Below are positions 1-503 of a stretch of 5,076 nucleotides of DNA, piece by piece. Under the pieces are notes generated by a model. It ran no database searches, had not been told where the DNA came from, and saw only the letters and a list, made by a program, of their open reading frames with translations. Source of the stretch: a virus (lineage: Duplodnaviria > Heunggongvirae > Uroviricota > Caudoviricetes); IMG/VR virus record IMGVR_UViG_3300018478_000044; one strand, given 5' to 3'. Each line of letters opens with the position of its first letter. Position 1 is the first letter of the stretch. A program made the translations under genes and the position numbers.

Positions 1-503
1 CGGCGCTGACGTTTGCGCTTCTCATTCAGCGCCACCAGCCGCGTTTCTGCCTCCTGCTGTTCCTGTGGTGTCACCTCGCCGCACGGCTGGCCTTTCAGGT
101 CGTAACGTGCACCACCAGCCATTAAGGCGCGGTAATAGCGCGGACACTGCGCATAAGATGCCAGCGTCGCACGTAATGCCCCCGGCCCGAACGCCAGCCC
201 CCTGACGGCGATATCCTGCATCAGGTCGTCAAATATCCCCACCTTCAGCGGCTTCGGAGCTTCCCGGCTGAATAATTCAGGCCACAACTCAGTGAGGCGG
301 TTAACGCGTCTGCGGTTTTTTCGCTGCCGTTTGGTCATATGCCGCCACGGTGTTGCCCCTGTGGGCTTCTGCTGCGCTTTCTGGTTACCGGGCATCACTT
401 TATGCGCCGATGTGGTTTTATCCTGCTGCTGCGCCGCCTGCGTCGTTTTCTGCGGCGTGCCGTAAATACCTTTTGGTTTTCTGTTAATGGTCAGCTTAGT
501 CAT
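1..503 (-). CDS. FinO/ProQ-domain RNA-binding protein, N-terminal part; the 3' end runs off the window start
   Basis: Manual minus-strand translation from ATG at 503 is open to position 1: MTKLTINRKPKGIYGTPQKTTQAAQQQDKTTSAHKVMPGNQKAQQKPTGATPWRHMTKRQRKNRRRVNRLTELWPELFSREAPKPLKVGIFDDLMQDIAVRGLAFGPGALRATLASYAQCPRYYRALMAGGARYDLKGQPCGEVTPQEQQEAETRLVALNEKRKRQR... The segment PLKVGIFDDL...LRATLASY...YYRAL..GARYDLKGQPCGEV follows the pattern I recall for the ProQ N-terminal FinO-like domain (PLKIGIFQDL...[35 protein letters not shown]). It is absent from the supplied ORF track because it is truncated by the window edge. The start codon is uncertain (ATG at 503, 395 or 338, none with a strong SD). Confidence 0.7.
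   Translation of the reverse strand, partial: MTKLTINRKPKGIYGTPQKTTQAAQQQDKTTSAHKVMPGNQKAQQKPTGATPWRHMTKRQRKNRRRVNRLTELWPELFSREAPKPLKVGIFDDLMQDIAVRGLAFGPGALRATLASYAQCPRYYRALMAGGARYDLKGQPCGEVTPQEQQEAETRLVALNEKRKRQR

Follow-up and report, generated by a model that had tools for sequence, protein, structure and literature searches.

The DNA analysed here (the window) is a stretch of 5,076 nucleotides (nt) from the IMG/VR virus record IMGVR_UViG_3300018478_000044 (Caudoviricetes). By its gene layout it belongs to a phage-inducible chromosomal island (PICI), and its first 503 positions carry, on the minus strand, nearly all of a gene for a small protein of the FinO/ProQ family. We propose that this gene encodes a FinO-domain RNA-binding accessory protein of the island, 176 amino acids (aa) long, which would act on stem-loop RNAs, and we put the probability of this reading at about 75%. 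The gene occupies a conserved position behind the replication module of many related islands, mostly beside a gene of the PerC family.

The sequence-only reading had placed a FinO/ProQ-domain gene at 1-503 and had proposed a profile search as a check. That search returned a significant match to the Pfam family ProQ/FINO (PF04352; residues 64-167, 81.8 bits against a cut-off of 27, E=4.2e-23) over profile positions 5-107 of 109. A sequence search of the PDB retrieved only FinO-domain proteins, namely the N-terminal domain of ProQ (5nb9, 4e-12), FinO (1dvo, 3e-11), NMB1681 (3mw6), Lpp1663 (6s10) and RocC (7rgs/7rgt/7rgu). The fold points the same way. An AlphaFold2 model, built from the 167 aa in the window and an alignment of 23 homologues, is confident from about residue 50 onwards, with a predicted local distance difference test score (pLDDT) of at least 87 for residues 61-167, about 90-96 for 61-160 and below 50 for 1-46. 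When this model was compared with the PDB by Foldseek, the top 26 matches were all FinO, RocC, NMB1681 or Lpp1663 (E about 1e-6, target TM-score up to 0.84), the best entries being FinO 1dvo, RocC 7rgt/7rgu, NMB1681 3mw6 and Lpp1663 6s10. In the alignment with ProQ 5nb9, residues R111, Y123, R133 and K87 take the places of ProQ R58, Y70, R80 and K35, and all four are invariant or nearly so among the 23 homologues. ProQ R58, Y70 and R80 are important for RNA contact (PMC7491321), and on this alignment the RNA-binding pocket of the FinO domain is retained.

The reading frame from ATG 503 stays open down to window base 3, giving 167 codons, and the last nine codons and the stop lie beyond the left edge. 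A frame disrupted just outside the window had been named beforehand as the sign of a pseudogene. Two loci that are 99.98% identical to window 1-4124 (L002 and L007) both continue the frame undisrupted for nine codons to a stop, giving 176 aa. Because these near-identical loci carry the frame to its stop, the gene is read as intact and not as a pseudogene, with its 5' 95% inside the window, and the cut represents a contig end and not a mutation. RefSeq E. coli genomes annotate the same gene as 'ProQ/FINO family protein'. At the other end of the window, the last 10 bases (5067-5076, AGATCGGAAG) equal an Illumina adapter prefix and do not occur in loci that are otherwise identical; L019 and L020 agree at 100% with window 4840-5066 and diverge exactly at 5067. 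The window is thus probably a complete short contig that retains part of an adapter at one end, while its other end cuts the FinO-like gene.

Homologues down to 54% identity start with M-T/V-x-L-T-I-N-R-K-P-K-G-I-Y, and T5, I6, R8 and K9 are nearly invariant in the alignment of the 23 homologues. A GGGG stands at -8 to -11 from ATG 503 and keeps its spacing in the divergent island L018, which has no upstream ATG. Given the conserved N-termini and this shared spacing, ATG 503, which the sequence-only reading had considered conditionally, is taken as the true start. Some gene callers choose the in-frame upstream ATG at 515, which yields 180 aa, and calls of both 176 and 180 aa occur. The basic, Gln/Lys-rich N-terminal extension noted earlier also held up: 63 aa precede the Pfam domain and are rich in Gln, Lys and Thr (K+R 14, D+E 1, Q 9, T 10, pI 11.7). 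Two conserved basic elements, the N-terminal patch and residues 51-70, are separated by a variable Q/T-rich linker. The second element, TPWRHMTKRQRKNRRRxNRL, becomes the helix that enters the core, and its K62, R66, R69 and L70 are invariant among homologues; the alignment to the NCBIfam FinO profile reaches back to residue 29. Pairwise ratios of nonsynonymous to synonymous substitution (dN/dS) among 55 distinct genes are 0.25 for residues 1-50, 0.30 for 51-73, 0.19 for the core and 0.48 for 146-167. Every segment is under purifying selection, the C-terminal helix being less constrained, and the low ratio in the N-terminal extension argues that it is translated and constrained.

Membership of the family does not extend to identity with one of its well-studied members. 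The protein scores 66.6 bits with the NCBIfam FinO model NF010317 (cut-off 136) and 56.5 bits with the ProQ equivalog NF003434 (cut-off 127). Different alignments with plasmid FinO give 29-34% identity; with FopA (YafB of pCol1B9) the identity is 31% over the domain only (35 bits), the N-termini failing to align, which places it outside the FopA clade; a few phage proteins reach about 27-40%. An orthologue of FopA, FinO or ProQ was therefore rejected, the identity to each being 29-34% and the scores falling below both NCBIfam cut-offs. Since these scores are joined by the lack of a ProQ linker and C-terminal domain, we assign the FinO-like protein to a separate clade or subfamily.

The closest architectural parallel is FopA. 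Both are small single-domain FinO proteins encoded on a mobile element, without the C-terminal Tudor-like domain of ProQ; FopA also has no FinO N-terminal domain. In each, the domain is preceded by an extension of about 65-85 aa that contains two basic stretches and, immediately ahead of the domain, a Trp, and the key Tyr and Arg are conserved. FopA, however, is plasmid-borne near repZ and has the antisense RNA Inc as its ligand, whereas the FinO-like gene lies on a chromosomal PICI. FopA stabilises Inc, which controls the repZ replication initiator of pCol1B9 (PMC7491321). FinO provides the best structural match (1dvo, E=1.7e-6) and is likewise encoded by a mobile element, with a basic N-terminal region, a Trp before the core and a C-terminal helix; in contrast to FinO, which acts on FinP/traJ in F-like plasmids, the FinO-like gene is not part of a tra operon and no FinP-like antisense RNA lies nearby. 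Chromosomal ProQ of E. coli and Salmonella shares the FinO-domain fold and the RNA-binding residues R58, Y70 and R80, but the FinO-like protein ends at residue 176 after its C-terminal helix, with no linker or C-terminal domain, and its gene is an accessory island gene that coexists with core proQ. Two further identities were considered and rejected. Rpp, the packaging-redirection protein of PICIs, is a winged helix-turn-helix dimer (PMC6739421), and its gene rppA (c1503, 144 aa) sits elsewhere in EcCICFT073. A component of a defence system was dismissed as well, PADLOC giving no matches for the FinO-like gene, PerC or the downstream cargo.

The setting of the gene is that of a satellite. RefSeq genomes and other assemblies show the element as an island of 15-17 kb at tRNA-Thr between proA and the pao genes. 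It runs from int through a 265-aa open reading frame (ORF), AlpA, AntA, a divergent YlcI/DUF3950 gene with a 65-aa ORF, an Icd-like gene and five small ORFs to DUF4222, primase, origin, ProQ/FINO, PerC and variable cargo. By tblastn, the identities to the prototype EcCICFT073, whose locus in CFT073 (L105) was identified via the 144-aa rppA ORF, are 95% for Icd-like, 62% for o65, 53% for o77, 52% for PerC, 51% for DUF4222 and 43% for the primase. With int, AlpA, primase, iteron origin, site-specific integration and an EcCICFT073-homologous backbone, the layout is that of Gram-negative PICIs, and the element is identified on these features as a PICI satellite with an EcCICFT073-type backbone. 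No Rpp-like or capsid gene is evident in the cargo of this island. The satellite-type replication gene and origin that had been noticed beside the gene are accordingly a PICI replication module. Its primase-helicase matches phrog_864 'DNA primase' (E=5e-156) and also the C-terminal region of P4-family primases (TIGR01613). The iterons number 12 against 0.77 expected by chance, a count reached in none of 200 shuffles, and the segment 522-859 is recognised as a typical iteron origin 3' of pri-rep.

Neither the classical PICI EcCICFT073 nor the capsid-forming Sp7 of O157 Sakai (EcCIEDL933 type) yielded a FinO-domain gene by tblastn. Both prototypes share with this island int, alpA, the divergent YlcI/DUF3950 gene, an Icd-like gene with a structured leader, the small ORFs, DUF4222, primase, iteron origin and a slot that contains PerC. 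They differ in the content of this slot: the prototypes carry orf85-ssb-perC (pchE in Sakai), and in this island the FinO-like gene replaces orf85-ssb. Since the prototype PICIs replicate and transfer without it, the FinO-like gene is classed as accessory and not as part of core replication control. In L002, a 95-aa PerC-family gene (PF06069, E=5e-32; L002:12717-13004), which would lie to the left of window base 1, overlaps the FinO-like stop by ATGA, and a strong intrinsic terminator at 13048-13070, 44 nt after perC, ends the finO-like-perC unit. The GC content is 54-64% in the FinO-like gene compared to 45-50% in the primase gene and about 30% in the origin. The own terminator and the GC difference from the primase gene are both typical of an independently acquired cassette.

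The position of the gene was surveyed in 88 loci encoding relatives, drawn from IMG/VR, isolate genomes and metagenomes, in which marker proteins were mapped by tblastn. In all of them the FinO-like gene lies downstream of the replication module and is co-oriented with int, alpA, Icd-like, DUF4222 and primase. Its place, in classical and capsid-forming PICIs alike, is a fixed slot for an accessory gene ahead of the module for cargo or capsid, in the order pri - ori - [orf85 - ssb] - finO-like - perC. In 69 loci a PerC-family gene is its neighbour, usually with the ATGA stop overlap and sometimes upstream or after an intervening 138-aa ORF, and ssb stands immediately upstream in 36 of 78 loci, with a gap of 36-50 nt where measured (L018, L021). 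The primase is of the D5_N type in 44 loci and of an unrelated DUF927 type in 23; the iterons of L018, the one DUF927-type locus checked, are TAACCCGCA, unlike the GTCTACC type. The 19 loci without PerC have an 82-aa ORF without family match and, behind it, an HK97 major capsid gene (PF05065, E=8e-61); those with this pair include L061-L072, L074, L079 and L080 (e.g., L065:7183-8850). Because of the capsid gene, these 19 loci are regarded as capsid-forming PICIs, in which the FinO-like gene sits between ssb and the capsid module. The gene is present in 1176 of 5426 complete E. coli genomes (22%), at up to nine places per genome, and all 1660 places are chromosomal, none being on plasmids. So far the subfamily is found mainly in Escherichia, with members also in Shigella, Salmonella and Citrobacter; a contig scan of one genome per species gave eight loci, the close subfamily there being confined to Escherichia species.

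Given this architecture, the FinO-like protein would bind stem-loop RNAs with a single-stranded 3' tail, i.e., terminator-type hairpins, as FinO, FopA, RocC and ProQ do. RNAs so bound would be protected from exonucleases, or their pairing with complementary RNA would be sped up, or both, the basic tail and the Trp helix presumably supplying the chaperone activity. For FinO itself, Arthur et al. reportedly traced in 2003 the strand-exchange activity to the basic N-terminal region and Trp36. Expression is expected when the rightward operon of the island or an origin-proximal promoter fires. Because the PICI life cycle of the prototypes does not require the gene, the replication machinery itself would be a less likely target than a regulatory RNA from the island, helper phage or host. 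The most economical reading is a modulatory role on island, helper or host RNAs, without choosing among these three target classes, because the gene is accessory, belongs to a unit with a separate terminator and is frequently paired with a PerC/Pch-type gene. Control of the element or of a helper phage through RNA, as the sequence-only reading had suggested, is a conjecture from the identity of the domain.

Several results weigh against this account. The prototype PICIs do without the gene, so that any role would be modulatory and could address host, helper or island alike. A partner RNA was not found by Rfam scan, terminator scan, antisense folding or synteny. In the Rfam scan of the window (E<=1), the only matches were spurious hairpins in the iteron field, and a known RNA family (C4/CI-type, IsrK etc.) was rejected on this ground. 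Folding of the strand antisense to the gene (plus strand, 250-500) revealed no unusual structure (z = +1.1). A cis-antisense RNA inside the coding sequence was likewise rejected: the terminator-like hairpin at 295-321 coincides with the KNRRRVNRL codons and is conserved because its bases encode this motif. Finally, when island types are compared, their homology reaches no more than about 10 nt upstream of the ATG, and no conserved non-coding DNA travelling with the gene was found beyond that point, which implies that no neighbouring RNA gene moves with it. The origin transcript was also considered as a structured RNA and discarded, its strong fold (z = -6.8) being fully explained by the inverted iterons.

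A more specific role as a regulatory 'moron' is possible but stays tentative. Here, the FinO-like protein would act with the co-transcribed PerC/Pch-type activator to reprogram expression of the host (e.g., of virulence) or of the helper, perhaps by competing with or complementing chromosomal ProQ. The accessory status of the gene, its placement in a discrete cassette with perC (ATGA overlap, own terminator), its elevated GC content and the presence of pchE in the homologous slot of Sakai Sp7 all fit such a role, and ProQ is known to bind many prophage and island RNAs (PMC9977716). The pairing is frequent without being obligatory, however, as the prototypes have PerC without the FinO-like gene and the 19 capsid-forming loci show the reverse. 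Control of copy number in the manner of FopA or FinO would have the protein chaperone an antisense RNA of the island, the RNA in turn repressing the primase gene or the firing of the origin. The stabilisation of Inc, with its control of repZ on pCol1B9, is the precedent, and the architecture resembles FopA; moreover, the gene abuts the iteron field 522-859. We nevertheless hold this mode to be quite improbable: the gene accompanies two unrelated primase types (D5_N/DUF5906 and DUF927) with differing iterons (GTCTACC and TAACCCGCA), EcCICFT073 and Sakai Sp7 share the replication layout without it, and no antisense promoter/terminator pair against the primase gene emerges above chance (5 promoter-like sites compared to 6.5 expected). 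Least credible is an accessory factor at the replication fork that handles single-stranded DNA, RNA primers or R-loops together with the single-stranded DNA-binding protein (SSB) instead of regulating post-transcriptionally. The constant place after the replication module, often directly downstream of ssb, would suit it, yet all characterised FinO-domain proteins bind structured RNA, the conserved residues are those of the RNA 3'-end pocket, no ssb gene is present in this window and the prototype PICIs replicate without the FinO-like gene.

A related question is whether the replication protein regulates the gene, as had been suggested from the distance between iterons and start codon. The measured geometry agrees with that suggestion: 18 nt lie between the ATG and the nearest iteron pair, two copies of AACTGTCTACC at 522-543 (start-to-start distance 19), so that any promoter must overlap or lie upstream of the putative binding site. 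Primase/Rep bound there could repress or gate transcription of the FinO-like gene and couple its expression to replication; in islands that contain ssb, too, about 50 nt separate the last iteron from the start of the gene that follows the origin. The suggestion is weakened in that proximity to the iterons is no feature of the family: the FinO-like gene is close in this island by being the first gene after the origin, and elsewhere ssb often intervenes. In addition, no sigma-70-like promoter is predicted between the iterons and ATG 503, and read-through from the primase operon is equally possible. Such gating therefore appears doubtful, and regulation by the replication protein is possibly a property of this particular island at most, not one conserved across the family.

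One structured RNA element does stand out in the window. This is the leader of the Icd-like operon (4179-4256, minus strand), which is conserved whether or not a PICI carries the FinO-like gene; Sakai Sp7 has it too. Two hairpins make up the leader, a bipartite one (4218-4251) and another (4190-4206) directly ahead of the Shine-Dalgarno (SD) sequence and the ATG, with an invariant single-stranded UCUAACCACCAA between them. Among 18 PICI variants, compensatory changes occur in 7 of 13 predicted pairs, and the covariation is 0.22 compared to 0.05 in shuffles, of which 0 of 500 reach this value, and to at most 0.04 with the partners slid. The leader matches no Rfam family, and homology to the P4 immunity region at the DNA level was rejected, no P4 match being present in the phage collection. 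We regard it as a candidate regulatory RNA of the island, linked to the FinO-like protein by co-residence only.

This leader enters a bolder proposal, which we consider unlikely. Expressed on PICI induction, the FinO-like protein would be the first RNA chaperone in the conflict between satellite and helper. It would bind a specific structured RNA, either the Icd-like leader or an antisense/terminator RNA of the helper phage such as lambdoid OOP or late-leader RNA, and thereby time derepression of the island or interfere with helper expression. If this were true, E. coli would have a fourth functional class of FinO-domain proteins, carried by roughly every fifth genome.

Among the RNA chaperones of bacteria, FinO-domain proteins form the third major class, and to our knowledge all characterised members from mobile elements (FinO, FopA, plasmid-associated RocC ligands) govern either the spread of their element or its copy number. 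Interactions between satellite, helper and host are currently explained by protein-protein and protein-DNA mechanisms, e.g., those of AlpA and Rpp. Should the FinO-like protein act on a specific RNA, these interactions would gain a post-transcriptional layer, and the RNA-binding landscape of many pathogenic E. coli would include extra FinO-domain proteins. The subfamily is usually paired with a PerC/Pch-type virulence activator. It offers a testable way into RNA-level control among satellite, helper and host. The family itself is common and already annotated automatically, and its identification here is correct but unsurprising to a specialist. Among the accessory genes of Enterobacter PICIs, a survey from 2026 names a ProQ/FinO-like chaperone as well as PerC, and a Vibrio study lists a ProQ/FinO-like regulator in episomal satellites; both concern other genera and mention such genes at the level of annotation, leaving architecture, synteny and function unanalysed. 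The papers on capsid-forming PICIs and on Rpp make no mention of the gene, and targeted literature searches found no functional study of this subfamily. As far as could be found, the conserved FinO-like slot in the PICI architecture has not been described before.

Table 1. Coordinates in the window of the FinO-like gene, its segments and the adjoining replication module.
Feature	Positions	Strand	Basis
FinO/ProQ-domain coding sequence, codons 1-167 of 176	1..503	-	Translation; Pfam; full length read from L002:12190-12720
Start of basic C-terminal helix, residues 146-167, running on to 176 outside the window	3..68	-	Model helix 146-166
FinO core, residues 74-145, three helices and beta-hairpin	69..284	-	Alignment to ProQ 5nb9; conserved columns; fold matches
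Trp and Arg/Lys-rich segment TPWRHMTKRQRKNRRRVNRL, residues 51-73, helix into FinO core	285..353	-	Model helix 58-73
Disordered basic Gln/Thr/Lys-rich tail, residues 1-50, with conserved patch LTINRKPKGIY	354..503	-	pLDDT <50 for 1-46; dN/dS 0.25; composition
Short leader with SD-like GGGG (510-513) and in-frame upstream ATG (513-515)	504..521	-	Sequence; comparison with L018
PICI replication origin, 12 iterons AACYGTCTACC in six tandem pairs, both orientations	522..859		Iteron count; GC about 0.30
Primase-helicase (PICI pri-rep), 601 aa	887..2692	-	D5_N, DUF5906, Pox_D5; phrog_864; TIGR01613

Some further features of the window concern the island as a whole. Its sequence is a mosaic: whereas 1-4124 matches L002 and L007, 4840-5066 is identical to another island type (L019/L020), 3' of a Bro-N gene, which indicates recombination between PICI lineages near the Icd-like leader. 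Upstream of the primase gene, the ORFs 2984-3184 and 3403-3786 (minus strand) both match phrog_340, and the ORFs 3177-3410, 3403-3768 and 3761-3985 all match parts of phrog_2512; this set of small ORFs looks like duplicated or split genes typical of this PICI backbone. The palindromic 10-mer TGTGCGCACA occurs in two perfect copies 23 bp apart (4280-4289 and 4303-4312) and in a third, imperfect one at about 4349-4357. Lying between the Icd-like operon and the YlcI/DUF3950 gene, in their divergent promoter region, these copies resemble operator sites for an island regulator. On the plus strand, a canonical intrinsic terminator (GGCGACC-loop-GGTCGCC and a T-run, 4930-4959) closes the rightward unit of the YlcI/DUF3950 gene and the 65-aa ORF, which converges on the alpA-antA/Bro unit. 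Just upstream of this terminator, a 50-nt stretch at about 4860-4909 is conserved across otherwise divergent islands.

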